Of a DNA stretch of 64,000 nt, positions 5,256-27,869 are shown piece by piece (the stretch's first letter is position 1; each line of letters opens with the position of its first letter). Under the pieces are notes generated by a model, which saw only the letters and a program-made list of their open reading frames with translations, did no database searches and was not told the origin of the DNA. Origin of the DNA: a virus. The position numbers were made by a program, and so were the translations under genes. The stretch is taken from IMG/VR virus record IMGVR_UViG_3300009163_000025, positions 24,349 through 88,348 of that record. One strand, given 5' to 3'.

Positions 5256-5329
5256 TGGCATCCCGCCAGGGATTCGAACCCCGATCAACGGTTTTGGAGA
5301 CCGCTATGTTGCCTTTACACTAGCGAGAT
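5256..5329 (-). tRNA. tRNA-Trp(CCA)
   Basis: Cloverleaf, loop CT-CCA-AA, encoded CCA end. Confidence 0.9.
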
Positions 5330-5331
5330 AT

Positions 5332-5406
5332 TGGTGGGCTTAAGTGGATTCGAACCACTACCTTATCAATTATGAGTTGACGGCACTACCTTTATGCTAT
5401 AAGCCC
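5332..5406 (-). tRNA. tRNA-Ile2(CAT) (lysidine type; Met less likely)
   Basis: Loop CT-CAT-AA; Ile-like GGGCTT acceptor stem. Confidence 0.75.
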
Positions 5407-5409
5407 AAT

Positions 5410-5494
5410 TGGTATGAGTAGCCGGAATCGAACCGGCATGCCTTGCGGCGAGAGATTTTAAGTCTCTTGCGTCTACCTATTTCGCCATACTCAC
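5410..5494 (-). tRNA. tRNA-Leu(TAA)
   Basis: Long variable arm, loop CT-TAA-AA. Confidence 0.92.
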
Positions 5495-6763
5495 TCAACT
5501 ACCATCATTTGCGATTTGAAGCCTCAACTCTTGCAGTTGGTGTAAGGTAATTTTATCGAAAAATCCATAGCCGAAGTGTGTATCAGAATCCATGATTTTA
5601 AAATTCTTTTCGTTGAAAACAAAACTTAGCGATCTGTAGTAATTTCTTGAGTCACCAAAACGCATTGCATGAATGAAATCATGAAACGCATCACTTTCTT
5701 CTAAGATTTTTTGCGCTGGTTCTTTAATTCCATTCCAGAATGGTGTATCGTGAATACTGCCATCACGATACATGTATGCGATAACAGTAGCAACATTATT
5801 AATTTCAGCAGATATTACCGCATTTGCTCCTTCTTTTGATCCACCATATGCAATATACCCAACAATTGCACGATTGATTGTGTCATATAAGTGTAGTGAA
5901 TTTGCAAATAGCGGTTCGAAAAATACAGCACGATTACCATTCTTAAAAATTCTTTTACCAATAATTTGTTTAGCACGATATGAATTGAATTTGTATTCAA
6001 TATTTTGCAACTCTTCTACAGGAACACCAATCTCTTTAGAGAAATTTTGAAGTGCTTCTTCTTTCGTTGTTATTGTATCATTAAAAAGATATCCATAACT
6101 TTTTCTATTGGTTAATGGCACACCAAACATCCATCCATCCGGTGTCGCTCTATGTAATGTATATTTCCATCCTTCTTTATCATCCTCTTGAACATTATGA
6201 ACAAGGCAATGATTGACTGTTTGAACGGGCATCAAACTGTAATCTTCATATGATTTTGGAAACCCACGACAATCTACAACAAAATCGTAATTGTGTTCTT
6301 CACCATCGATAACCATAGTGACTTTATCATCATGCTCCGTCATTGAATCGACTGTACCAACTACTTCTTTAAATTTTTCACGCCAAACTTTTTTGAGTCT
6401 AGGTATTGCAAATTCTCTAAGTTTAAATGTATTAAAATGAATCGCCGCACTACCATTAATTAATGGATTGTGAAAGTCGTGTTCACGCCAATTTTCAAAT
6501 TTTGTTGTTAGTTTTAATGTTGCGTCTAATTCTTCTAAATTATCATACAAATTAAATCGTGTACCATATTCAAGCGCAGTAATGAATGTTGGATTTGTAC
6601 TCTCACCAATTCCTACAATAGGAATAGATGGATCATGAATTGACACAACCTCAAATTCAAGCCCATCAAGCCAAGCAAGAAAAAAAGATAATGACTGAAT
6701 GCCAGCACTACCAGTTCCAATAACTGCAACTTTTTTCTTTATGATTTCTTTTACACTATGCAT
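5495..6763 (-). CDS. flavin-dependent tryptophan-halogenase-like protein
   Basis: GTGSAG dinucleotide-binding motif, GIGEST, WMFGVP, FFEPL. Confidence 0.8.
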   Translation of the reverse strand: MHSVKEIIKKKVAVIGTGSAGIQSLSFFLAWLDGLEFEVVSIHDPSIPIVGIGESTNPTFITALEYGTRFNLYDNLEELDATLKLTTKFENWREHDFHNPLINGSAAIHFNTFKLREFAIPRLKKVWREKFKEVVGTVDSMTEHDDKVTMVIDGEEHNYDFVVDCRGFPKSYEDYSLMPVQTVNHCLVHNVQEDDKEGWKYTLHRATPDGWMFGVPLTNRKSYGYLFNDTITTKEEALQNFSKEIGVPVEELQNIEYKFNSYRAKQIIGKRIFKNGNRAVFFEPLFANSLHLYDTINRAIVGYIAYGGSKEGANAVISAEINNVATVIAYMYRDGSIHDTPFWNGIKEPAQKILEESDAFHDFIHAMRFGDSRNYYRSLSFVFNEKNFKIMDSDTHFGYGFFDKITLHQLQELRLQIANDGS

Positions 6764-6788
6764 TATTTCTCCTTAACGAATTTTATAA

Positions 6789-7394
6789 TTATTCAACTTT
6801 TTTCATCGTATTAAAACTAATAATCACTCTATTCTTAGTTTGATTTTGTTCATAGTTTGACCCATGCTTTAACCAACTAGGAAAGAATAAAATATCTCCC
6901 GCACCAACTTTAATAGTCCAAAGATCGACAGTATACATTGTTTTGATTTTAGTTGGTGTTAAACATTTTATTTGATTCAATGGCGCATCAAATGTTATAC
7001 CTGTACTATCCTCATCAACATTAATGTATATAGCGGCTGATGCCCAACTATCTGGATGATAATGTTGTTTTAAAACGCTACCTTCATGCTGTATTGCATA
7101 CCATGAATTTGTGATAGCCAATCGATACATTCCAAATTTTTCTGCGTATTCATTAATGCCATTTTCAAGAAATTCATACAGCCCATGACAACTTGGAATA
7201 TTTTTTTCTAATTCTTGAATGAATAATGTTTCTTCAAGATAACTTGTCCTAACGTTTCCAGTTAAAGTGTCGTGTGAAGTGCCGTGTGGTTTTGCCATTA
7301 TATATTCAAATATATCTTTTCGGCGCTGTTCTTCAATGACACCTCTGTGCCATCTAACCAAAGTTGGGAATATATCAAAGTCTATTGTTTCCAT
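6789..7394 (-). CDS. 2OG-Fe(II) oxygenase (TIGR02466-like)
   Basis: HYHP, FFPSWLKH and RVIISFN motifs. Confidence 0.8.
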   Translation of the reverse strand: METIDFDIFPTLVRWHRGVIEEQRRKDIFEYIMAKPHGTSHDTLTGNVRTSYLEETLFIQELEKNIPSCHGLYEFLENGINEYAEKFGMYRLAITNSWYAIQHEGSVLKQHYHPDSWASAAIYINVDEDSTGITFDAPLNQIKCLTPTKIKTMYTVDLWTIKVGAGDILFFPSWLKHGSNYEQNQTKNRVIISFNTMKKVE

Positions 7395-7395
7395 A

Positions 7396-7917
7396 TCAAA
7401 CGAAAAATGTAAATGTTAATCGGGAATCTTCAATTGTAGTTCCAAAAAATCTTTGTGGACGATGAAGTATATTCTTATATAGCACAAGTCGGTTAAATTT
7501 ATTTTCAACTACAATTTCTTTACCATTTGAAACCAAAATCGTTCCACTATTAGGTTCAGGTGTTTTATTTAGATAGATCACACCAGCACAAGAACATTGA
7601 TCTGTGTGCCACCAATGCCGAACTGGTATATCATAATTAGCAAATTCTGGAATGATTGCAAGATATGCACTTGCCTTTGTGTAATCGAATTTAACTGACT
7701 TTGATACTATTTGTTTCAATGTATCAATTTGAGTCTTACTGATATCCGTAGAACGATATCCACGCCACATTGCAGGCGGCCGTGAAGGTTCATTGGAGTC
7801 AATTTGAACTCCATCAATAATCCTGTCTTCAAATGTATAATAAGTTGCAATCCTTGAAAGTGCGACTAATTGATCTGGATCAGATAAAATGTTATCAACT
7901 ACAATATAATCATTCAT
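7396..7917 (-). CDS. 2OG-Fe(II) oxygenase-like protein
   Basis: HTD, GVIYLN, NKFNRLVLY and ILH motifs. Confidence 0.75.
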   Translation of the reverse strand: MNDYIVVDNILSDPDQLVALSRIATYYTFEDRIIDGVQIDSNEPSRPPAMWRGYRSTDISKTQIDTLKQIVSKSVKFDYTKASAYLAIIPEFANYDIPVRHWWHTDQCSCAGVIYLNKTPEPNSGTILVSNGKEIVVENKFNRLVLYKNILHRPQRFFGTTIEDSRLTFTFFV

Positions 7918-7922
7918 AATTA

Positions 7923-7997
7923 TGGCCCGACCTGAGGGAATCGAACCCCCATAATGACTTTAGAAGAATCATGTCCTATCCGTTGAACGAAGGTCGG
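7923..7997 (-). tRNA. tRNA-Arg(TCT)
   Basis: Loop CT-TCT-AA, CCA end. Confidence 0.88.
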
Positions 7998-8004
7998 AAT
8001 AAAT

Positions 8005-8078
8005 TGGAGCGGGATATGAGAATCGAACTCATAACTGAAGTTTGGAAGACTGCCGTTTTACCACTAAACTAATCCCGC
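8005..8078 (-). tRNA. tRNA-Gly(TCC)
   Basis: GCGGGA acceptor, loop CT-TCC-AA. Confidence 0.9.
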
Positions 8079-8081
8079 AAT

Positions 8082-8156
8082 TGGTGGAGATGGAGAGAAT
8101 CGAACTCTCAATTTCTGGTTGCAAACCAGATGTGTTCCCATTAGCACTACACCCCC
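8082..8156 (-). tRNA. tRNA-Ala(TGC)
   Basis: G3:U70 pair, loop TT-TGC-AA. Confidence 0.92.
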
Positions 8157-8738
8157 TTAAATATCTTTCTTAACGTAATGACAATTAATTGCAATACTCA
8201 ATCTATCTTCATCACTACGATTTTCATTTACATAATGCATTAGCCAACTAGGAAAAATCAAAAGTGTTCCTGCGTTAGGTGCTACAACAAATATACTGCT
8301 GTTGAATTCATTATAACTACTAATAATTTCGTCGGAATAAGAATGCAATGCGGCCGCATTTGGTGTTGTAAATTCTATAGTTCCAAATTCTTTTTTTCCT
8401 ATTGGATAATAAACCGCACTAAAAAAAGAAGTTGGATGTGTATGAGGTTTGCTTGTTACATAACAATTATTTATTGTACACCAAGCCTCTCTAATTTTTA
8501 AAAAATATTCATCACTAAATCCATATCGTTTGTATACTTCATTAAATTTATTTTCAACATGATCGAATAAGTCTTTGATAACACCACTAACATTTTCTTG
8601 TCTTATCCAAGATTGATGATCCGACATACGATTTTTTTCTGTGATAAGATTTTTACGACAAAAATTAACAATTGACTCATTGTCCAATGATAATTGATCC
8701 ACCGCTAAAAATGTTGTAAATATGTTCGTATATTGCAT
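8157..8738 (-). CDS. 2OG-Fe(II) oxygenase (TIGR02466-like)
   Basis: PHTHP, IFPSWLMH and RLSIAIN motifs; paralog of 6789-7394. Confidence 0.82.
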   Translation of the reverse strand: MQYTNIFTTFLAVDQLSLDNESIVNFCRKNLITEKNRMSDHQSWIRQENVSGVIKDLFDHVENKFNEVYKRYGFSDEYFLKIREAWCTINNCYVTSKPHTHPTSFFSAVYYPIGKKEFGTIEFTTPNAAALHSYSDEIISSYNEFNSSIFVVAPNAGTLLIFPSWLMHYVNENRSDEDRLSIAINCHYVKKDI

Positions 8739-8758
8739 AAATTCCCCACAAAATAAAT

Positions 8759-8832
8759 TGGTCTCGATGGCAAGAATCGAACTTGCGCCTCATGGTCCCA
8801 AACCACGAATGATACCATTTCACCACACCGAG
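8759..8832 (-). tRNA. tRNA-Pro(TGG)
   Basis: Loop TT-TGG-GA. Confidence 0.9.
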
Positions 8833-8865
8833 TTTTCTCTATTATACATCAATCTGCTATCAATG

Positions 8866-9609
8866 TCAAAGCAAATTGATTATATTCTTTACCAGACTGT
8901 CTACGTCATTTCTTGTTTTGCCGCCAAGAACAACAATTGCAAATCTGTCTTCTCTTTTATGTACAATCATCACAACGCATTTACCAGCAAGATTTGTTGT
9001 TCCGGTCTTGGACATTTCAATCACATCAAATTTAGATAACAAATTTTTATTTGTGCTATTGATTTCAATCAATCGCTCTCTATTCTTTTTATCATACACA
9101 TGAAGATCATATTCACGCAATGATGCAATTTCTTTTATCTTCTCAATGTTATACGCATAATTCAGTAGTGTAACTAACTCAACTGCATTACTCACATTCT
9201 TTGGACTCAATCCAGATGGGTCATCAAACTTTGTATTAACCATTCCTAACATTTCTGCTTTACGATTCATTTGATATACGAACCATGCTTTACCATGATT
9301 GCTATCTGCTAATGCATCGGCTGCCTTGTTGTCACTTTTAACTAATAACAAATTCAACAATTCTTCTCTAGTAAATTTTTTGCTAGAGAAAAACATTCCC
9401 CTATATGTAACTTTCTCATCCAATGGCAGTCCACTCTCCATGATAACAATAGCAGTCATCAATTTCGTAATACTTGCAATTGGTTTTACATCATAAATTT
9501 CAGAGTCAACTATTGGAATATCTTTTGTTATGTTATGTGCGTAAACTGTTATTGCATTTGCATTCATACACATAAAAACTGTGAGTATGCAATATAGTAT
9601 TTTTTTCAT
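8866..9609 (-). CDS. D-Ala-D-Ala peptidase (peptidase S11, PBP5/PBP7-like)
   Basis: Signal peptide; SxxK (ASITK), SDN and KTG motifs. Confidence 0.9.
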   Translation of the reverse strand: MKKILYCILTVFMCMNANAITVYAHNITKDIPIVDSEIYDVKPIASITKLMTAIVIMESGLPLDEKVTYRGMFFSSKKFTREELLNLLLVKSDNKAADALADSNHGKAWFVYQMNRKAEMLGMVNTKFDDPSGLSPKNVSNAVELVTLLNYAYNIEKIKEIASLREYDLHVYDKKNRERLIEINSTNKNLLSKFDVIEMSKTGTTNLAGKCVVMIVHKREDRFAIVVLGGKTRNDVDSLVKNIINLL

Positions 9610-9619
9610 ATTTACTTTC

Positions 9620-9694
9620 TGGTACCTTGTGACAGGATCGAACTGCCGACCTTCTCCGTGTAAAGGAGTTACTCTACCGCTGAGTTAACAAGGC
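9620..9694 (-). tRNA. tRNA-Val(TAC)
   Basis: Loop TT-TAC-AC. Confidence 0.92.
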
Positions 9695-9699
9695 GTTAT

Positions 9700-9773
9700 T
9701 GGTGCCCCTTGACAGAATCGAACTGCCGTAACCTGATTACAAAACAGGCGTAATACCATTATACTAAAGGGGC
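9700..9773 (-). tRNA. tRNA-Thr(TGT)
   Basis: Loop TT-TGT-AA. Confidence 0.9.
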
Positions 9774-9792
9774 TCATACTTTATATATCTAT

Positions 9793-9866
9793 TGGCAGAG
9801 GGTACAAGAATCGAACTTGTGACAACGGAATCAAAATCCGTGGTTATACCATTTAACTAACCCCCA
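9793..9866 (-). tRNA. tRNA-Gln(TTG)
   Basis: Loop TT-TTG-AT. Confidence 0.88.
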
Positions 9867-9871
9867 ACATT

Positions 9872-9961
9872 TGGTGGAAGCGGTGAGATTCGAACTCACG
9901 GACCCTTTCGGATCGACAGTTTTCAAGACTGTTGCCATAAACCTGACTCGACCACGCTTCC
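9872..9961 (-). tRNA. tRNA-Ser(TGA)
   Basis: Long variable arm, loop CT-TGA-AA. Confidence 0.92.
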
Positions 9962-9967
9962 ATTAAT

Positions 9968-10042
9968 TGGCACCCAATGAAGGAATCAAACCTCCAACTC
10001 CTCGTTCGTAGCAAGGTGTGATATTCATTTCACTAATCGGGT
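9968..10042 (-). tRNA. tRNA-Arg(ACG)
   Basis: Loop CT-ACG-AA; T-loop TTTGATT. Confidence 0.85.
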
Positions 10043-10045
10043 AAT

Positions 10046-10128
10046 TGGTGCCCCAAGAGAGACTTGAACTCTCACGCACTAGGCACTGGCTTCTAAGACC
10101 AGCGTGTCTACCATTCCACCATCGGGGC
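10046..10128 (-). tRNA. tRNA-Leu(TAG)
   Basis: Variable arm, loop CT-TAG-AA. Confidence 0.92.
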
Positions 10129-10136
10129 AATATACT

Positions 10137-10210
10137 TGGTACCCAGTAGAGGTATCGATCCTCTGATTAACGCTTATCAAGCGTTTGTTATACCATTTAA
10201 CTAACCGGGC
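10137..10210 (-). tRNA. tRNA-Ile(GAT)
   Basis: Loop TT-GAT-AA; atypical T-loop ATCGATA. Confidence 0.88.
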
Positions 10211-10215
10211 ATATT

Positions 10216-10291
10216 TGGTACCGACTTCAGGTTACGATCCTGATTCTCTGGTTTTTCAAACCAGCGCAATGACCACACTTGCTCAATCGGC
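10216..10291 (-). tRNA. tRNA-Phe(GAA)
   Basis: Loop TT-GAA-AA; atypical T-loop ATCGTAA; 5' end overlaps the upstream CDS. Confidence 0.85.
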
Positions 10292-10867
10292 AGAACCATT
10301 TCCGTTCTTAAATCCTACTACACCACCTTCTTCTTTGATGCGTTTGATAACGTCTTCAAAAAGAATTGGCGTGTAATCTGTTTGTTCTACACATACACAA
10401 TAGTATCTTGGATCGGGAACTGGAACACCATACTTACCTACTGGTTGCATCATCACTCTGTTAGAATGTAGATGCCCATGAATGTTCACACCGAATCTTC
10501 CAAGACTGTCTACGTGAATAGGAATGTGAGAAAGAATCATTCCGTTCATTACATGATAAGCACGTAACTCTCTAAAATATTTTCTATACTCATCATCACG
10601 AAAAATATCGTGATTACCACGAATTAAAACTTTGTCACCATTTAGCCTACTCATAATGCCTAGACTTTTACGATTGATAACAACATCGCCTAGATGATAA
10701 ACTTTATCGTTAGGGCGAACTCTATCATTCCAGCGCCTAACCATTTCTTCATCCATCTCATCTGCATTATCCCATGGACGTAGTTTTGTCACACCATCAT
10801 TACGCATGAATCTACACACACCAGTGTGACCAAAGTGTGTGTCACTAACTAAAAATACTGATGGCAT
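10283..10867 (-). CDS. calcineurin-like metallophosphoesterase
   Basis: SDTHFGH, HLGD, GNHD and HGHLH motifs. Confidence 0.9.
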   Translation of the reverse strand: MPSVFLVSDTHFGHTGVCRFMRNDGVTKLRPWDNADEMDEEMVRRWNDRVRPNDKVYHLGDVVINRKSLGIMSRLNGDKVLIRGNHDIFRDDEYRKYFRELRAYHVMNGMILSHIPIHVDSLGRFGVNIHGHLHSNRVMMQPVGKYGVPVPDPRYYCVCVEQTDYTPILFEDVIKRIKEEGGVVGFKNGNGSAD

Positions 10868-10881
10868 ATATTACTCCTTTG

Positions 10882-10956
10882 TGGGGTGTCTAATGAGGAT
10901 CGAACTCATACGGAGGGAATCACAATCCCTAATGCTACCACTACATCATAGACACC
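10882..10956 (-). tRNA. tRNA-His(GTG)
   Basis: Loop TT-GTG-AT; G-1:C73. Confidence 0.92.
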
Positions 10957-10963
10957 ATAAAAA

Positions 10964-11039
10964 TTGGTAGGGGCACCGAGAATCGAACTCGGATTAATAG
11001 GTTAAAAGCCTACTACTTTAGCCGTTAAGTTATGCCCCC
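10964..11039 (-). tRNA. tRNA-Lys(TTT)
   Basis: Loop CT-TTT-AA. Confidence 0.92.
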
Positions 11040-11043
11040 ATAT

Positions 11044-11118
11044 TGGTGGTTCAGGTTGGATTCGAGCCAACGACCTACTCCGTATGAAGGAGTTGCACTA
11101 CCGCTGTGCTACTGAACC
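11044..11118 (-). tRNA. tRNA-Met(CAT), elongator
   Basis: Loop TT-CAT-AC; paired 1:72. Confidence 0.82.
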
Positions 11119-11121
11119 GAT

Positions 11122-11207
11122 TGGTGGAGAATCAGGGATTCGAACCCCGTATACCTTAAGGTGACAGATTTACAGTCTGCTGAAGTCGCCAATGCTTCTC
11201 ATTCTCC
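11122..11207 (-). tRNA. tRNA-Tyr(GTA)
   Basis: Variable arm, loop CT-GTA-AA. Confidence 0.9.
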
Positions 11208-11213
11208 GTTGTT

Positions 11214-11292
11214 TGGCTCCGAGTAAGAGAATCGAACTCTTCTAACCAGTGATTAACAGTCACGCCCATGCACCTTGCTCGGGTTTCTCGGA
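11214..11292 (-). tRNA. tRNA-Asn(GTT)
   Basis: Loop CT-GTT-AA. Confidence 0.88.
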
Positions 11293-11296
11293 ATAA

Positions 11297-11510
11297 ATGC
11301 TTTCTCTCTGCGGCGGTAATTATAGTACTAATGGACTCTGAGGACGTCTGTTTTACCAGACACTCATACCACGTACCCTCCACCCGCTCCCCGACCAGAG
11401 AAAACTCTCGTATTGCCAACGCTACTTTGGTAAGAGTAGTACCACACTTGAGTAACGAACTCACTTCACTTCCTGCGTGTCACAGTAGCCAGACGTTACT
11501 CCAGCGGGTT
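11297..11510 (-). ncRNA. about 215-nt GC-rich structured RNA of unknown family
   Basis: GC-rich non-tRNA spacer with several nested helices between two tRNAs. Confidence 0.65.
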
Positions 11511-11583
11511 TGGTTGCAGGTAGTGGTAACGCTCCACTCTCGCTATGGCTTATGAGACCATGCGGGTCCTTGACCTACCTGCG
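11511..11583 (-). tRNA. tRNA-fMet(CAT), initiator-like
   Basis: C1xA72 mismatch, loop CT-CAT-AA; atypical T-loop AGCGTTA. Confidence 0.78.
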
Positions 11584-11586
11584 ATA

Positions 11587-12042
11587 TTACTTTATAACTT
11601 GTAGATACTCGTAATTAACTGTATCTTCGTTTTCTCTAAACACTATTGCACCATTACGTGTATGAAACCTTTTGGCTAAATCAGTCTTTGGTGATAGTGT
11701 CACAAATCGTTTAATGTCTGGATTGTTTTCTTTGATAGATTTTACCGCTTCAAATATCAATGTGCGACCTGCTCCTGGTGCGTAACTCCATATCGTATAG
11801 AATACAGCAACATCTGGCGTATCACAAATCTCAAACAACTCAGATTCTTTTGTTGGAATCATGTTTTGATAACTAACACATGTCATTGCTTTCACTTCAT
11901 CTTGTTCATTGCGGAACACAAAGATATCTCTGTTCTTTCCGATTCTATCAACGTGAGGAATGTTTGGGCGAACTGGATCGTCAATCAAAAATTCAAAAAA
12001 CTTATCAGTCAATTCTTTTATAGTACGTATCATATTATTCAT
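11587..12042 (-). CDS. GNAT-like (acetyltransferase-fold) protein
   Basis: FYTIWSYAPGAGRTLI and AKRFHTRNGA resemble GNAT motifs A and B. Confidence 0.6.
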   Translation of the reverse strand: MNNMIRTIKELTDKFFEFLIDDPVRPNIPHVDRIGKNRDIFVFRNEQDEVKAMTCVSYQNMIPTKESELFEICDTPDVAVFYTIWSYAPGAGRTLIFEAVKSIKENNPDIKRFVTLSPKTDLAKRFHTRNGAIVFRENEDTVNYEYLQVIK

Positions 12043-12066
12043 TTCTTAAAATTATAAATCGTCATA

Positions 12067-12074
12067 TATTTATA
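12067..12074 (-). promoter_or_regulatory. T4-type late promoter TATAAATA inside the tRNA array
   Basis: Exact consensus in an intergenic gap. Confidence 0.6.
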
Positions 12075-12081
12075 TAAAATC

Positions 12082-12157
12082 TGGCGGTCTTAGGGGGTAA
12101 CGATCCCCACTCTTATGGCGTGACAAGCCATCGTGCGTCCATGAACACTTTAAGACC
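12082..12157 (-). tRNA. tRNA-Asp(GTC)
   Basis: Loop TT-GTC-AC; atypical T-loop ATCGTTA. Confidence 0.88.
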
Positions 12158-12162
12158 AATCT

Positions 12163-12250
12163 TGGCGGAGAGTATCAGATTCGAACTGATGCATCGCTTT
12201 CGCAATGACGGTTTAGCAAACCGCTGGTTTAACCACTCACCCAACTCTCC
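12163..12250 (-). tRNA. tRNA-Ser(GCT)
   Basis: Long variable arm, loop TT-GCT-AA. Confidence 0.92.
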
Positions 12251-12256
12251 TTTGTT

Positions 12257-12333
12257 TGGAATAGGTGACAGGACTCGAACCTGCATGAAACGGATTTGCA
12301 ATCCGTAGCCTAACCATTCGGCGACACACCTAC
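12257..12333 (-). tRNA. tRNA-Cys(GCA)
   Basis: Loop TT-GCA-AA, U73. Confidence 0.9.
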
Positions 12334-12344
12334 GTATCTAATTC

Positions 12345-12472
12345 TACCATTTGTTTTGCTGACGCACTATTTGCAAAGCCTCAACGGAATTGGTGGCCAC
12401 ACTACCGTTTATTGACAGAGTTACTCAAGGTTGACGTTTACCTCATGGCTTACGTCAGCAAAACAAATGGTA
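12345..12472 (-). ncRNA. about 128-nt structured RNA closed by a perfect 20-bp stem
   Basis: 12345-12364 and 12453-12472 are perfect inverted repeats; internal hairpins present. Confidence 0.65.
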
Positions 12473-12542
12473 CTCGGTAGGGGAATCGAACCCCTCTTTC
12501 CGGCGTGAAAGGCCAGCGTCCTAACCGATAGACGAACCGAGC
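12468..12542 (-). tRNA. tRNA-Glu(TTC)
   Basis: Loop CT-TTC-AC; first tRNA of the array. Confidence 0.93.
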
Positions 12543-12554
12543 ATTTGACAGGCA

Positions 12555-12569
12555 AATTGTTAAAGAACA
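12555..12569 (-). promoter_or_regulatory. rrn-type boxA antitermination element
   Basis: TGTTCTTTAACAATT versus E. coli rrn boxA TGCTCTTTAACAATT, one mismatch. Confidence 0.8.
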
Positions 12570-12597
12570 TTTGATTGATTTCTCAATCTATGAATAG

Positions 12598-12626
12598 AGT
12601 ATAACACGATACGCTATCCATGTCAA
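12598..12626 (-). promoter_or_regulatory. sigma70 promoter of the tRNA array
   Basis: TTGACA-N17-TATACT. Confidence 0.8.
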
Positions 12627-12661
12627 CAATATTTTTTGGTACTGTTGTTTTTTGTAAACAC

Positions 12662-12694
12662 AAATAAAAATCCCCTAGTTTTTTAGGCTAGGGG
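12662..12694 (-). terminator. intrinsic terminator of the putative attenuator
   Basis: CCCCTAG-N9-CTAGGGG followed by ATTTTTATTT. Confidence 0.8.
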
Positions 12695-12740
12695 GCTTTT
12701 GTTTGCATTTAAGGTTTTTGGTCCTCAGGTGCAAGCCCCC
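12691..12740 (-). promoter_or_regulatory. antiterminator hairpin, mutually exclusive with the terminator
   Basis: GGGGGCTT (12740-12733) pairs with AAGCCCCC (12698-12691); inner GCA/TGC and TGAGG/CCTTA helices. Confidence 0.72.
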
Positions 12741-12838
12741 ATTCCAGGTGTGTGGCAATCGGCAATCTCAAAGCGAGAATTACCCTGCCAACTTGATGGC
12801 ATATAATTCGTCTTTGACTGTACCGATAATAGTTTCAT
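12725..12838 (-). CDS. putative attenuator leader peptide containing all 20 amino acids (37 aa)
   Basis: MKLLSVQSKTNYMPSSWQGNSRFEIADCHTPGMGACT; TAATG overlap with the upstream gene; last codons form the antiterminator 5' arm. Confidence 0.75.
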   Translation of the reverse strand: MKLLSVQSKTNYMPSSWQGNSRFEIADCHTPGMGACT

Positions 12839-13116
12839 TAAATTTTCTCTTTAGTAAAAATGTCTGACCACGTTTGTAATTTCTTACGTTTGTTTTGTGA
12901 AGCCTGTTCTACTTCATCAATGTTGATGATTTTATTTTCAATCATCAATTGAATCATGCAAAACAAATCTCCAACTTCTTCTGTTAACCTTTGCCGATTG
13001 GTGCGATCCAAATGAACTGCATCAATGCCAAATCGAAAAACTTTGCTAATCGCTTGTGTCACTTCCGCACATTCTTCCTGTGCAATCAGCAATACTTCTT
13101 TTTCGACCTCATTCAT
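12838..13116 (-). CDS. MazG-like NTP pyrophosphohydrolase
   Basis: QEECAEV...EEVGDL motifs. Confidence 0.8.
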   Translation of the reverse strand: MNEVEKEVLLIAQEECAEVTQAISKVFRFGIDAVHLDRTNRQRLTEEVGDLFCMIQLMIENKIINIDEVEQASQNKRKKLQTWSDIFTKEKI

Positions 13117-13133
13117 TATATATCCTTTTTCTT

Positions 13134-13421
13134 TCAATTATACACTTGTTCGAGCAAATTGTCAAGAACTTTTTTTGTTTCTTTGCTTGTCGCACCATAA
13201 ATCTTAAATTGATCTGCTAGTGACATTACGCCTTGAACTAACATTTCTTTCGGCTCGCCTTTATTGTATTCATACATCACTCGCTTATTCAAGAATGACG
13301 CAACCTTTTCAATTACGATTCTTGGAAACTCATCTGTTTTTAAATTCCATTGATTAGCACTCAAATCAACACTAATGTTTGTTCGAATCGCAATATTTGG
13401 ATGCGGTTTATTGATATTCAT
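13134..13421 (-). CDS. hypothetical protein
   Basis: ORF in operon. Confidence 0.65.
   Translation of the reverse strand: MNINKPHPNIAIRTNISVDLSANQWNLKTDEFPRIVIEKVASFLNKRVMYEYNKGEPKEMLVQGVMSLADQFKIYGATSKETKKVLDNLLEQVYN
13137..13165 (-). promoter_or_regulatory. consensus sigma70 promoter for the mazG-leader transcript
   Basis: TTGACA-N17-TATAAT. Confidence 0.8.
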
Positions 13422-15825: not shown

Positions 15826-15862
15826 TTCAAATTTCCTTTTCTTTTCTCAATCTCTAGACTCT

Positions 15863-15923
15863 AGTATACCACAATGGGTACATATGTCAACAACTATTTT
15901 CAATTCTGTTGTTTTTATGCAAC
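15863..15923 (-). promoter_or_regulatory. early promoter plus GTTG-N8-CAAC box
   Basis: TTGACA-N16-TATACT with extended TG; box at 15908-15923. Confidence 0.8.
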
Positions 15924-15938
15924 TGAATACTTTGGTAT

Positions 15939-16271
15939 TCACATTGCTCCCATCCAACGAACATTCTGAAAAGTCCGTGCCATCGTGTTTCCACGGGCAA
16001 AATTCTTAGCGGGACTTGCCCATCCAGCGGCTTTCAAAATGTCGCCTTTAGTGAATTTGCCCATGTCACGGAGACAAACAAACGAATGCACGGAACGACC
16101 GCTACCTTTGCGACCAGTAATTACTTTGATGTAACTGCGACCAACTTCAAATGACAGGCTATCGCAAAAATCTTGCGCCATTGCCTTTTGGGTTTCAGTA
16201 GGTGTTGCACCTTGCCACTTAATGTAGTCAGCCTTGATGCATTCCAGATATTCGTTAAAACCGTCAATCAT
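15939..16271 (-). CDS. conserved T4-like early protein
   Basis: YIKVI..SVHSFV..GDILKAAGWASPAK motif; start at MIDGFN. Confidence 0.75.
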   Translation of the reverse strand: MIDGFNEYLECIKADYIKWQGATPTETQKAMAQDFCDSLSFEVGRSYIKVITGRKGSGRSVHSFVCLRDMGKFTKGDILKAAGWASPAKNFARGNTMARTFQNVRWMGAM

Positions 16272-24112: not shown

Positions 24113-24844
24113 ATGGCAGGCGAAGCGGCAGAAAGACAAGAATCTGGAGTAGTTAAGGCTATTAAAGATGCTGTTAAAAAAAATAAAAATAATCCAATAA
24201 CTATAGTTGCGGGCAAAACAACAATCGCTGGAGTTATTAATGCGGAAAAATTTACTGGTCGACAAGAAAGTGGATCCGAACCATATACGGATGTACAACT
24301 TTTCATTTACAATAAAAAAGAACCAATTAATCTTTCGCTAAAAGGGGAATCAGCACCATCACTTGCTGGTGGTGGTTTACGTGGACTTGAATTGGCCGTT
24401 CCAGGAATAGCAAAAAAATTTATGAAAGCCGCATTTGAACATTTAACAAAAAAAGTTAAGTTGAAACCCGGAGATAAAGTTCCTGATGTATTTGGTAAAA
24501 TTGGAGGACCCGCAAAATTGAAAATTGTTGTTGGTAATAAAGCCATGGGGGGACCAATTGATTATATGTACATTGGACCCATGAATGTTGTTGCGCCATA
24601 TGATATGAAAAAAAACATAGTAAAATTTAATGGTGCATTAACTGGTGCAGTTGAGTATGCAAAAACTCATGATTTGTATTTTAGATTTAGGGCTAGAAGA
24701 GAAGATCAAAGATTTGATCCAACCGCAAAAGATGCAGACGGAACTCCAAAGATATATGGAAAATCTCCCTCTAGGGGAGATTCAGCAGGAAGAATAGTTG
24801 TCACCGATAAAGTTTCAGGCAAAGGTGAATTAGTCAATATATAA
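24113..24844 (+). CDS. PD-(D/E)XK nuclease-like protein
   Basis: ERQE...TDVQL...NLSLK pattern. Confidence 0.5.
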   Translation: MAGEAAERQESGVVKAIKDAVKKNKNNPITIVAGKTTIAGVINAEKFTGRQESGSEPYTDVQLFIYNKKEPINLSLKGESAPSLAGGGLRGLELAVPGIAKKFMKAAFEHLTKKVKLKPGDKVPDVFGKIGGPAKLKIVVGNKAMGGPIDYMYIGPMNVVAPYDMKKNIVKFNGALTGAVEYAKTHDLYFRFRARREDQRFDPTAKDADGTPKIYGKSPSRGDSAGRIVVTDKVSGKGELVNI

Positions 24845-25725: not shown

Positions 25726-26397
25726 TCAATCCCAAAGTGCTTGATAGTATTTTCCGAACAAACGAAATCCGTTCTTGATTCGTTCCTCAACAATTGCCAT
25801 GCCGTCATAGTCACATTTGTATGTGTGTTTGGGACCTTCTTCCAATCTAAACATTTTTGGCTTACCATTTTCATCCCACTCACAAGCAACCGACTTATGA
25901 TCAAATTCACCTGACCGATATCCTTCTTCCCACTCTTTATTGATGTGGTGATCGAATGCAAAAATCATTTCATCCATGACCCAATCCCAACGCTTGAAAT
26001 GGTTGTCATCGGTGTCCCATTCATTTTCTTTTGCTGGCGCTGAAGTAGACTTCAATTCTTCTGGCACATCTTCATCATCAACAAAAGGCGCACCATGCTT
26101 TTTATCTTTCAACTGTTTCAACATAGGCAAAGCAATTTGACCAAGAGTATGATCCATAGACCAAGTATCCCAATAGTCAATCTTCACATAGTCAATCTTA
26201 GGGTGAATTACATCCAAGACTTTTGCAATCACTTTGCAGATAGGGTCTAAAAAATTAACCCACTTCTCGTATGGTGCGTTAGGCTTGTCTTCGAGATTAT
26301 AGAACACATCATTAGTTTTTTCCCAAAAGCAAACAAACTCTAAGATGTGATATGGACTTAGCCAGTGATTACGATATCCGCTGATGTAGACTTTCAT
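25726..26397 (-). CDS. conserved phage hypothetical protein
   Basis: DTWSMDHTL, RWDWVMDEMIFAF and GFRLFGKYY motifs. Confidence 0.8.
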   Translation of the reverse strand: MKVYISGYRNHWLSPYHILEFVCFWEKTNDVFYNLEDKPNAPYEKWVNFLDPICKVIAKVLDVIHPKIDYVKIDYWDTWSMDHTLGQIALPMLKQLKDKKHGAPFVDDEDVPEELKSTSAPAKENEWDTDDNHFKRWDWVMDEMIFAFDHHINKEWEEGYRSGEFDHKSVACEWDENGKPKMFRLEEGPKHTYKCDYDGMAIVEERIKNGFRLFGKYYQALWD

Positions 26398-27869
26398 ATT
26401 GGTTGGTATTCGTTGATTTGTTTAAGGAATTCTTTATGATCTAATGCTTGAGTTGCAGTCAAAGCATCAATTATTTCTCTATACTCTTGTGGTGATGGAC
26501 GAACATTCTCAAAGCCCTTAATATTGATAGGCTTTTCAAATATTTCAAGTCCATAACCAACTTGAAGATAACTATACAAAGCAAAGTATACATTGATACG
26601 CATGTTTGGAATGTTATAGGGACGTAGATTTCCATCTTTAAGAAATGGAATCAAATTTCTAATATATTCTGGTGGAGGATTTTTCTCCACAAACTCAGTC
26701 CAAAATGGGCTATCTTTTCGTTTTGTGAGATAGTGAAAGTATACAAACCCCATAGTGTCATCCATGTTGTTTCTTGCAATATCGTTAAACACTTTGATAC
26801 TATTCTCATCGGGATTGTCAATCTCATTAATGAATTGACGGAAAGTATCTAACTCACCGACAGACAAAAAGATAGACGTTGATTCTAATGGTTCAATAAA
26901 ACTAGAAGACAATCCAACTGCAAGACAGTTTTTGATCCAATAGTTTTCAAAGCGACCTGGATTCAGATCAATAACTTTACGCACCTTGATTTCTTGCCCT
27001 AAGTATTCTTCAACTTCAGCCTTTGCTTGTTCTACTGTGATATAATCGGAATCGAAAACATAACCTGCACCTGTACGATGTTGCAGAGGAATTTGCCACA
27101 TCCATCCATACTTCATTGCAATTGCAGAAGTGTATGGTTTGAGTTCAGTCTCTTGAATCCAAAATGGAATCGCTTTCTTCATTGGCAGATATTTTGAATA
27201 CGATACCCATTCGTCTTTATACACTCCACCAATCAACAGTCTAGCCATGCCAGAACAATCAAAAACAAAGTCTACGGGAACACTACGCCCATCTTCAAGA
27301 TTCAATGCTTTAATATACTCACGTTCATCTTGTGTTGCGTGAGTATACACACCTTCAACAATTTCAATACCACGTTCAACACCTTTTTCGGATAAATATT
27401 TTGAAAATTCATTCGTATCGAAATGAATTGCCCATTCCGTTCTATGCAAATCAATTTTATTATCGTATGCTAGATGAATTTGATAATTGTAATCTTCTAA
27501 ACTCAAACCTTCAGCAATACATTTCTTCAAAAAGAAATCTTGCCCGTCTACACCAAATGTAGGTTGAACTGAGAAGTCTGTGACTTTATCACAAAATCCA
27601 TGCATGTAACGTTTCTCATCGCCATTCCAATTTTCAAAATTAATTCCACTCTTAATCGTGCCTTTAGTGCTTCGAATCAAATCGATGATATCAATATTAA
27701 TTTGCGAAAGAAACGCAACGATGTTTGGTGTTGTCGCTTCACCAACACCAATGATACCAATTTCTTTGCTTTGAACGACAGTAATTTTATCATTTGGAAA
27801 AACTGTATGTGCATACAATGCAGTCAACCAACCAGCGGTACCGCCACCCAATACTACGATATTTCTCAT
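26394..27869 (-). CDS. tryptophan-halogenase-family flavoprotein
   Basis: GGGTAG, GVGEAT, DCSG, WMWQIP and FIEPLESTS motifs. Confidence 0.9.
   Translation of the reverse strand: MRNIVVLGGGTAGWLTALYAHTVFPNDKITVVQSKEIGIIGVGEATTPNIVAFLSQINIDIIDLIRSTKGTIKSGINFENWNGDEKRYMHGFCDKVTDFSVQPTFGVDGQDFFLKKCIAEGLSLEDYNYQIHLAYDNKIDLHRTEWAIHFDTNEFSKYLSEKGVERGIEIVEGVYTHATQDEREYIKALNLEDGRSVPVDFVFDCSGMARLLIGGVYKDEWVSYSKYLPMKKAIPFWIQETELKPYTSAIAMKYGWMWQIPLQHRTGAGYVFDSDYITVEQAKAEVEEYLGQEIKVRKVIDLNPGRFENYWIKNCLAVGLSSSFIEPLESTSIFLSVGELDTFRQFINEIDNPDENSIKVFNDIARNNMDDTMGFVYFHYLTKRKDSPFWTEFVEKNPPPEYIRNLIPFLKDGNLRPYNIPNMRINVYFALYSYLQVGYGLEIFEKPINIKGFENVRPSPQEYREIIDALTATQALDHKEFLKQINEYQPI

Follow-up and report, generated by a model that had tools for sequence, protein, structure and literature searches.

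A candidate ribosome-mediated attenuator between a MazG-like gene and the tRNA array of lake phages

In the enterobacterial amino-acid leaders trpL, hisL, thrL, ilvL and pheL, a ribosome at the leader stop codon masks the antiterminator strand, and at pyrE (behind rph in E. coli) and in the pyrBI leader it is the distance between ribosome and polymerase that decides termination. The arrays of transfer RNA (tRNA) genes carried by phages are usually seen as aiding codon usage or as making up for host tRNAs that are destroyed in the course of infection, and, to our knowledge, the control of their expression has been little studied. A long tRNA operon of Anabaena is reported to be induced under translational stress (PMC8421152, PMC10272220). 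The closest published analogue of the arrangement described below appears to be the upstream open reading frame (uORF) attenuator of whiB7 (wblC) in mycobacteria and other actinobacteria. According to PMC10274678, the uORF of M. smegmatis encodes 19 of the 20 amino acids and senses many starvations via single codons; a single Trp codon is enough for sensing Trp starvation and its removal blunts the Trp response, showing that single codons can sense, and the hits for whiB7 activation cover 18 of the 20 amino acids, tRNAs and synthetases. Here, we analysed a 64,000-nucleotide (nt) stretch of viral DNA, hereafter the window (positions 24,349 to 88,348 of IMG/VR record IMGVR_UViG_3300009163_000025), in which a 37-codon open reading frame (ORF) lies between a MazG-like gene and a large tRNA array. 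With a probability that we put at about 55%, the MazG gene and this ORF together form a ribosome-mediated transcription attenuator that senses their translation and gates the tRNA array.

All elements of the locus read on the minus strand (coordinates are those of the window). A sigma-70-type promoter, TTGACA-17-TATAAT, with all 12 of 12 consensus positions (13137–13165), precedes the gene of a MazG-like nucleoside triphosphate pyrophosphohydrolase (12838–13116; 92 amino acids (aa) from the ATG at 13116), which was identified by Pfam PF03819 (25.3 bits, cut-off 22) and phrog_4856 (E 5.8e-24). Its TAA stop (12840–12838) overlaps the ATG of the leader-like ORF (12725–12838, 37 codons plus TGA) in a TAATG. 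An earlier reading made from the letters of the window without database searches, the sequence-only reading, had proposed this ORF, its peptide and the overlap with the MazG stop, and checking the sequence confirmed all three. The last codons of the ORF, GGGGGCUU, pair with the intrinsic terminator that comes next, in its 5′ arm; as the same reading had stated, GGGGGCTT (12740–12733) is exactly complementary to AAGCCCCC (12698–12691), and a terminator stem of CCCCTAG (12694–12688) with CTAGGGG (12678–12672), followed by a T-run, is present. In predicted folds, this pairing belongs to an antiterminator helix, P1, whose 5′ strand (GGGGGCU plus UGCA, 12730–12740) lies in the last ORF codons and whose 3′ strand (UGCA...AGCCCCC, 12688–12707) overlaps the terminator 5′ arm (CCCCUAG). 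Between the two strands, a small predicted hairpin, P2 (UGAGG...CCUUA, 12710–12727), begins at the ORF stop; in relatives it takes the form GGAC...GUCC with variable loops. The terminator 3′ arm (CUAGGGG) and its U-run occupy 12662–12678, as judged from sequence and fold. The predicted terminator stem has 7 GC-rich base pairs and a U-run in the window (12694–12662) and 8–13 base pairs in relatives, and the hairpin was called by a scan tool on the plus strand only (12671–12695).

Folding of the 73 nt up to the terminator 5′ arm of the window gave a structure of −24.5 kcal/mol (z = −3.9, with none of 200 shuffles as good), consisting of P1 enclosing the stop codon and the small hairpin that starts at this stop. 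The window terminator alone amounts to −14.8 kcal/mol, and the minimum-energy fold of the full 106 nt retains P1 at −29.9 kcal/mol. Six sequences taken from all clades (the window, L007, L009, L011, L367 and L040) were folded in two situations. P1 formed in all six when the transcript ended before the terminator 3′ arm exists, and the terminator fold was obtained in all six when the footprint of a terminating ribosome was mimicked in silico, the 5′ side being kept from pairing as far as 12 nt beyond the stop codon. Folding both conformers in this way bears out the proposal that the ORF 3′ end and its stop lie inside a helix sequestering the terminator 5′ arm.

The complementarity itself is unusually long. 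Perfect complements of 10 nt in L007 and 11 nt in L040 were reached by only 1 and 2 of 5,000 dinucleotide shuffles of the upstream 87 nt, respectively. Another 84 perfect-stem terminators, from the record and control loci, typically have a longest upstream complement of 4–5 nt; against these, L040 (10 nt by the arm definition of the script) ranks first and the window (8 nt) third. The L040 arms, GAGGCUUUUUG with CAAAAAGCCUC, have no sequence in common with the main family and enclose the stop codon likewise; L040 is evidently an independent instance, in which the same geometry was rebuilt with a different sequence. In the 23 aligned main-family sequences the loops and flanks of the switch vary while the P1 core is invariant, and the third positions of the GGG, GCU and ACC codons, read by eye, do not change while other degenerate sites do. 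Since covariation in P1 is lacking (see below), the support for the helix comes from the conservation of its arms, the shuffles, the third-position invariance and L040. The predicted attenuator architecture is, in our judgement, real, conserved and non-random. A conserved 1:2 hairpin upstream of the arm was looked for and not found as a feature of the family; a CCAC..GUGG palindrome considered for this role occurs in L007-type sequences only and was rejected for the family. Rows below the Rfam threshold for ohsC, NsiR1 and Thr_leader (16.4 bits vs 55) were discarded as noise, only tRNA reaching the gathering score.

Relatives were collected through MazG in viral contigs (at least 557 confirmed of at least 599 candidate stretches, the best 80 being kept), through peptide-profile scans of viral and metagenome contigs, and, for a third clade (L398–L400), through a profile search of 1.84 billion proteins. 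Loci L002–L017 carry a homologous ORF of 37–39 aa after MazG and before tRNA-Gln or tRNA-Glu. Altogether, 24 ORF versions distinct at the nucleotide level, that of L040 included, and 2 of the third clade make 26 versions from lake-phage contigs, all of them open. Coupling of the start to MazG takes three forms, TAATG, TAAAATG and ATGA, in which the ORF begins at the MazG stop, overlaps it or follows it by one base. The exception is L040, which with L394 forms a diverged clade with a longer ORF, of 55 aa if read from a TTG with AAGGAAG before it, or of 40 aa if read from an ATG; its likely TTG start falls within the MazG end. The L040 ORF and the window peptide have the common core S..MP.SWQG..R[FY]. 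In the alignment, insertions and deletions within the ORF fall into at least seven groups, every one a multiple of three, and, within the main family, the stop lies in an invariant block in 23 of 23 switch regions aligned.

Codon positions 1, 2 and 3 are variable at 13, 11 and 19 of 37 sites, respectively. The ratio of non-synonymous to synonymous substitution (dN/dS) of the ORF is 0.1–0.5 within the family and 0.4–0.8 between clades, below 1 in every pair computed, compared with 0.09–0.46 for MazG between clades. The proportion of synonymous differences (pS) between clades is 0.29–0.46 in the ORF vs 0.64–0.79 in MazG, about half, at a similar non-synonymous proportion (pN 0.20–0.28 vs 0.16–0.34); for these clade pairs the ORF of L399 was started 3 nt too far in and MazG of L398 and L399 lacked a few codons, with little effect on the values. 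As pS is about half that of MazG at similar pN, the pattern points to an ORF whose frame is maintained, whose peptide is moderately constrained and on which a nucleotide-level constraint is added to coding. Invariant or nearly invariant are M13, P14, W17, Q18, R22, E24, H29, P31, G34, A35 and C36. This substitution profile seems more in keeping with a regulatory leader that overlaps RNA signals than with a typical protein. A conserved, frame-maintained and MazG-coupled ORF, putatively translated, is upheld by the 26 versions and their in-frame indels.

No family for the leader peptide was found in Pfam or PHROGs. Its profile gave a single match among 5.8 billion protein clusters and 10 matches at E ≤ 1e-3 among 1.84 billion representatives, of which 2 are TGA read-through calls. 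These two, P0002 (162 aa) and P0003 (145 aa), begin with the leader peptide, pass its TGA and extend across the switch and the tRNA genes; such calls were evidently made with TGA as Trp and so are artefacts of the code chosen for these contigs. P0005 and P0008–P0011 are repeats or unrelated (P0009–P0011 judged from the results table). A motif-pattern scan of contigs returned the known members and random matches and nothing else new. At about 8559 (reverse-complement coordinates) on the minus strand of IMGVR_UViG_3300022213_000028, a stretch reads ..YMPKSWQG followed by an immediate stop, which could be a related leader ORF in decay or mere coincidence.

Combined with the folds and the comparison of relatives, the following mechanism can be proposed. 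The sensor operon would run in the order promoter (13165), MazG, 37-codon ORF and switch. A ribosome at or near the ORF stop when the polymerase makes the terminator would block P1, the terminator hairpin would form, and the outcome would be an mRNA of roughly 470 nt ending at about 12663. If the ribosome came late or were missing, which could result from slowed decoding, a loss of tRNA, a lack of amino acids or a block of initiation, P1 would form first and hold the CCCCC arm, and the polymerase would pass the boxA-like leader and go on to transcribe the array. Faltering translation would thus yield extra tRNA transcription, and in relatives lacking a second promoter read-through may supply most of the tRNA transcription. 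Of the attenuator as first proposed, the MazG-coupled ORF and the stop-enclosing helix stand and gain from their repeat in the diverged clade, whereas the sensing of all amino acids is not supported in the form given.

Several observations weigh against this attenuator. A strong second promoter lies after the terminator in 22 of the 28 distinct region versions, including the window, where it occupies 12598–12626 (TTGACA-17-TATACT with TG, sigma-70-like), so that read-through would merely add to tRNA expression there. The terminator is more stable than the antiterminator in the near clade (about −47 vs about −30 kcal/mol) and in L040 (−30.1 vs −25.1 kcal/mol); in these, P1 could therefore act only kinetically, during transcription. 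The 8-nt complement of the window is weak when taken alone, 196 of 5,000 shuffles reaching 8 nt. Among the 23 main-family sequences, 9 of the 10 P1 pairs never vary and none has changed on both sides, and counts on P2 and the terminator gave no covariation either. A model in which ribosome position alone matters leaves the conservation of the peptide unexplained. In RNA contigs from four metatranscriptome runs, two 151-nt records (X15) are identical to the window at 12748–12898 and 12929–13077, reaching only the 5′ two-thirds of the ORF, with DNA carry-over possible, and none of the contigs covers the terminator region (12656–12709); such contigs show neither ends nor strand and have no bearing on termination either way. 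Other RNA-library records over 12465–12611 are 90–95% alike, mostly diverging onward, and were set aside as tRNA or leader sequences of other organisms.

A further point against it concerns the origin of the ORF. A 94-aa protein, P0004, is 95% identical to the L040 ORF over its first 40 residues, the two parting just after LGADFNNS, and its residues 23–91 match, at 62% identity (E 1e-29), the C-terminal 69 residues of 221–262-aa vWA-like proteins encoded on unrelated high-GC viral contigs (L395, 2069–2734; L397, 1928–2716), which themselves give VWA hits below threshold. Searches with the L040 ORF as query returned only itself. By this comparison, the L040 ORF appears to be a longer gene cut short, and the whole leader-ORF family may descend from a recruited gene fragment. 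One could regard the ORF as a relic, the 5′ remnant of a P0004-like gene that once followed MazG, kept open through overlapping RNA or DNA signals with no sensing involved. The homology of P0004 to both the L040 N-terminus and the vWA-like C-termini speaks for this view, but we consider it improbable: in the main family 25 of 25 nucleotide versions are open with indels in frame, where decay would bring frameshifts, the stop sits in the invariant block inside P1 in 23 regions, and coupling to MazG is kept in all three overlap forms. Moreover, the window-type peptide is linked to the vWA-like tail only indirectly, and an origin from a gene fragment is compatible with present use as a leader.

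An explanation to which we give a real, if minor, chance is that the ORF encodes an ordinary micro-protein of 37–42 aa made with MazG, the hairpin ending the MazG operon and the complementarity being non-regulatory or serving to stabilise the 3′ end. Fourteen invariant peptide columns, including M, P, W, Q, R, E and H, would be in line with it, as would the dN/dS below 1, the nucleotide identity to relatives, which equals that of MazG (0.70–0.78 vs 0.71–0.76), the strong promoter after the terminator in most versions and the absence of covariation in P1. Yet synonymous divergence at about half that of MazG, with a dN/dS several-fold above it, is unusual for a plain protein gene, and the peptide belongs to no Pfam or PHROG family and is rarely called in either protein set searched. 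Nor would a plain protein gene account for an arm complementarity that stands out from the control terminators and is found again, in a different sequence, in L040, or for the six versions without a recognisable tRNA promoter past the terminator. A nascent-peptide arrest sensor of the TnaC/SpeFL kind, in which H-x-P-x-M-G-A-C-(Y)-T-stop would stall at the stop for a small molecule and so fix termination, appears highly improbable. Much of the conservation is explained by the RNA arm (GGG GCU UGY = G-A-C) and the context suggests no ligand, even though the final dozen residues are the most conserved ones, the sequence around the stop does not vary, and the folds make a ribosome at the stop decide the structure. 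The attenuator that senses translation of MazG and the ORF thus remains our preferred explanation.

The sequence-only reading had gone further and seen in the ORF a sensor of all 20 amino acids. Its counts were reproduced: the set of 20 amino acids is complete by codon 29, and the 37 positions use 31 different codons. The 25 decoding classes of downstream tRNAs that it gave were not: ARAGORN found 23 tRNA genes with 22 anticodons and no Asn, and Rfam found 21 at its gathering score. Under strict wobble, the ORF has a readable codon for 20 of the 22 array anticodons, those without one being Arg-TCT and Ala-TGC. A given 29-mer holds all 20 amino acids with p of about 1e-4 (9.5e-5 in a simulation with independent, identically distributed residues; 0 of 21,291 windows in long ORFs). 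The window contains 36,641 stop-free 29-mers, among which about 3.5 complete ones are expected and 4 were seen, all overlapping within the ORF. In the 88-kb record, 1 of 288 ATG ORFs of 30–60 aa is complete, the leader ORF, with roughly one expected. The coverage is therefore present as reported, yet in an amount that chance gives about once per window. Amino-acid coverage by itself is not beyond chance; the location of the ORF and its conservation in relatives are.

Among relatives, the complete set is not consistently kept. The 24 distinct main-family peptides hold 20 types in 12 cases, 19 in 10 and 18 in 2, so all 24 have at least 18 types, for which chance in a 38-mer is about 10–14%. The deepest lineages, represented by the window, L398 and L399, have 20 types each, and the L040 ORF has 20 from its TTG (hand count) and 19 from its ATG. 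Columns with the sole copy of a residue type vary in 1 of 8 cases vs 20 of 30 for the others (Fisher p = 0.013), complete peptides number 8.0 on average under column permutation (P(≥12) = 0.013), and none of 3,000 column permutations reaches the observed mean number of types; all three values ignore kinship. The residues present as single copies, W, Q, E, D, H, G and A, tend to change slowly in proteins generally, and G and A also lie inside the RNA arm. Phe is swapped in three ways (Ile, Leu, Ser), and Val is absent in several versions. The 14 invariant columns already hold 12 types, rare ones included, and, given these columns, background draws complete the set in 8–18% of trials per lineage. 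In the commonest peptide type of the largest (near) clade, Gly, Ala and Val occur only in, next to or after the arm (hand count); a stall there could not free the arm because the stalled ribosome would mask it. With a limit of 5 codons before the GGG codon, an assumed ribosome footprint size, hand counts gave 20 usable types in the window and L399, 19 in L398 (no Thr), 17 in the commonest near-clade type (no Ala, Gly or Val) and 17–19 in the others checked. A pangram would not be needed, since the ORF is entered by ribosomes leaving MazG and the sensor is effectively about 130 codons long. With complete sets in half of the peptides (12 of 24) and arm-located residues in the largest clade, the claim that the set is kept in relatives finds little support, and a requirement for all 20 amino acids as a design principle is weakly supported by these sequences. 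We regard it as doubtful that the ORF is a selected near-pangram that samples, by single codons, virtually all amino acids and all tRNAs of the phage. On that view, depletion or cleavage of any tRNA, through starvation or host anticodon nucleases, would cause a stall before the arm and open transcription from the MazG promoter into the replacement tRNAs of the phage, a self-correcting circuit linking failed decoding to the provision of tRNAs, which large phages would have evolved repeatedly.

Downstream of the switch, six of the 28 region versions (L007, L008, L371, L011, L015 and L367) have neither the second promoter nor the hairpin between the terminator and the boxA-like motif, which follows about 35 nt past the terminator. 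In L007, the sole promoter-like match scores 9/12 and abuts the tRNA. As no promoter is seen downstream of the terminator in these six, the first tRNA block appears to be reached there only via read-through, barring an unrecognised promoter type. The caveat that a separate promoter would leave the attenuator with additional expression only is accordingly confirmed for the window and softened by these six loci.

In every clade, a hairpin with a GAAA loop and, after it, a boxA-like motif (TGTTCTTTAACAATTTGC; GCTCTTTAAAAATTTGT in L398) stand 10–25 nt before the first tRNA, as seen in the window (12552–12587), L004–L017, L040 and L398–L400. The motif may correspond to E. coli rrn boxA, and the arrangement suggests possible rrn-style Nus antitermination on the tRNA array. 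Scanning with the boxA-like 16-mer gave at least 115 stretches, and none of the 104 new occurrences (from L262) has a tRNA within 120 nt. The array of the window begins with tRNA-Glu (12468–12542; ARAGORN, Rfam), the first of 23 minus-strand tRNA genes (5256–12542). ARAGORN did not detect the tRNA-Asn and tRNA-fMet placed earlier between tRNA-Tyr and tRNA-Asp (11150–12100), and Rfam gave nothing there at E ≤ 1; these tRNAs must be highly atypical, unless 25 is an overcount. A tRNA-Asn is detectable in the relatives L398–L400.

The more distant phages L054, L055 and L056 carry tRNA-Arg and tRNA-Leu directly after MazG (7 nt past its stop), with neither a small ORF nor a terminator in between. 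Because MazG is followed directly by tRNAs there, MazG looks like the usual gene heading the array and the ORF–switch–promoter module like an insertion between the two. Upstream of MazG, comparable TTGAAA...TATAAT promoters were read by eye in L398 and L399. Two minus-strand genes of the window match phrog_2928 (tryptophan halogenase), one at 5495–6763 (E 3.5e-73), within the array and directly after tRNA-Leu, and one at 26394–27869 (E 3e-108). Outside the window, the same record encodes a permuted two-piece transfer-messenger RNA found by ARAGORN (record coordinates 15847–16242, minus strand; tag ANDSRFALAA), a predicted second translation-rescue element of this phage besides its tRNA set.

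The source record is an 88-kb viral sequence of about 52% CheckV completeness and 37% G+C, and the runs, DNA and RNA, that contain this stretch are labelled freshwater, lake-water or unspecified metagenome. It encodes a DNA polymerase with a full-length match to family phrog_262 and a ribonucleotide reductase. DNA comparison with GenBank phages gave no match in near mode and tRNA-Glu alone in distant mode, and MazG compared by tblastn with the same phages reached at most about 39% identity; no close or cultured relative was found in these searches.

Compared with the enterobacterial leaders, the phage locus would have the same intrinsic terminator behind a translated leader, the same kind of upstream pairing that excludes the terminator, and the same geometry from stop to arm. 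Those leaders carry tandem codons for the regulated amino acid and a further 1:2 pairing that serves the untranslated state, whereas the phage ORF has no codon runs and no conserved 1:2 hairpin; they regulate biosynthetic enzymes, while the phage switch precedes tRNAs. The absence of a regulatory codon run from the ORF (31 codons in 37 positions), the defining feature of the trp/his type, sets it apart from that type and fits a broad sensor of the whiB7 type. Like pyrE, the locus would use a full upstream gene, MazG together with the ORF, as its leader. In pyrE and pyrBI, by contrast, a close ribosome prevents the terminator, and the signal is nucleotide supply slowing the polymerase rather than decoding speed. 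With the Anabaena operon it has in common an accessory tRNA array; expression there is reported to rise with impaired translation, but control is reportedly by the repressor TrcR (PMC10272220) and the setting is cellular, not viral.

The sequence-only reading knew of no such sensor, and the whiB7 uORF has to be mentioned in this regard (PMC10274678). For phage tRNA genes the statement holds so far: no description of a leader-ORF attenuator before them was found in the literature searched, most subscription journals lying outside it. In both cases a short upstream ORF precedes a terminator/antiterminator pair, and in whiB7 a stall anywhere in the uORF gives read-through, with uORF composition setting what is sensed (PMC10274678). 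The two differ in having no sequence relation and in their output, a transcription factor for antibiotic and alanine stress there and a phage tRNA array here. The whiB7 uORF stands alone in a 5′ leader, whereas the phage ORF is coupled to a full gene, and whiB7 uORFs are highly variable and Ala-rich, whereas the phage family keeps a defined peptide. If the attenuator is real, the phage would gauge decoding performance directly and respond with tRNA synthesis, which is of clear interest for phage–host translation conflicts; if the near-pangram view held as well, the ORF would be a compact natural reporter for shortage of any tRNA. In either case, the logic of the amino-acid leaders and of whiB7 would have been given a new output, a phage tRNA array.

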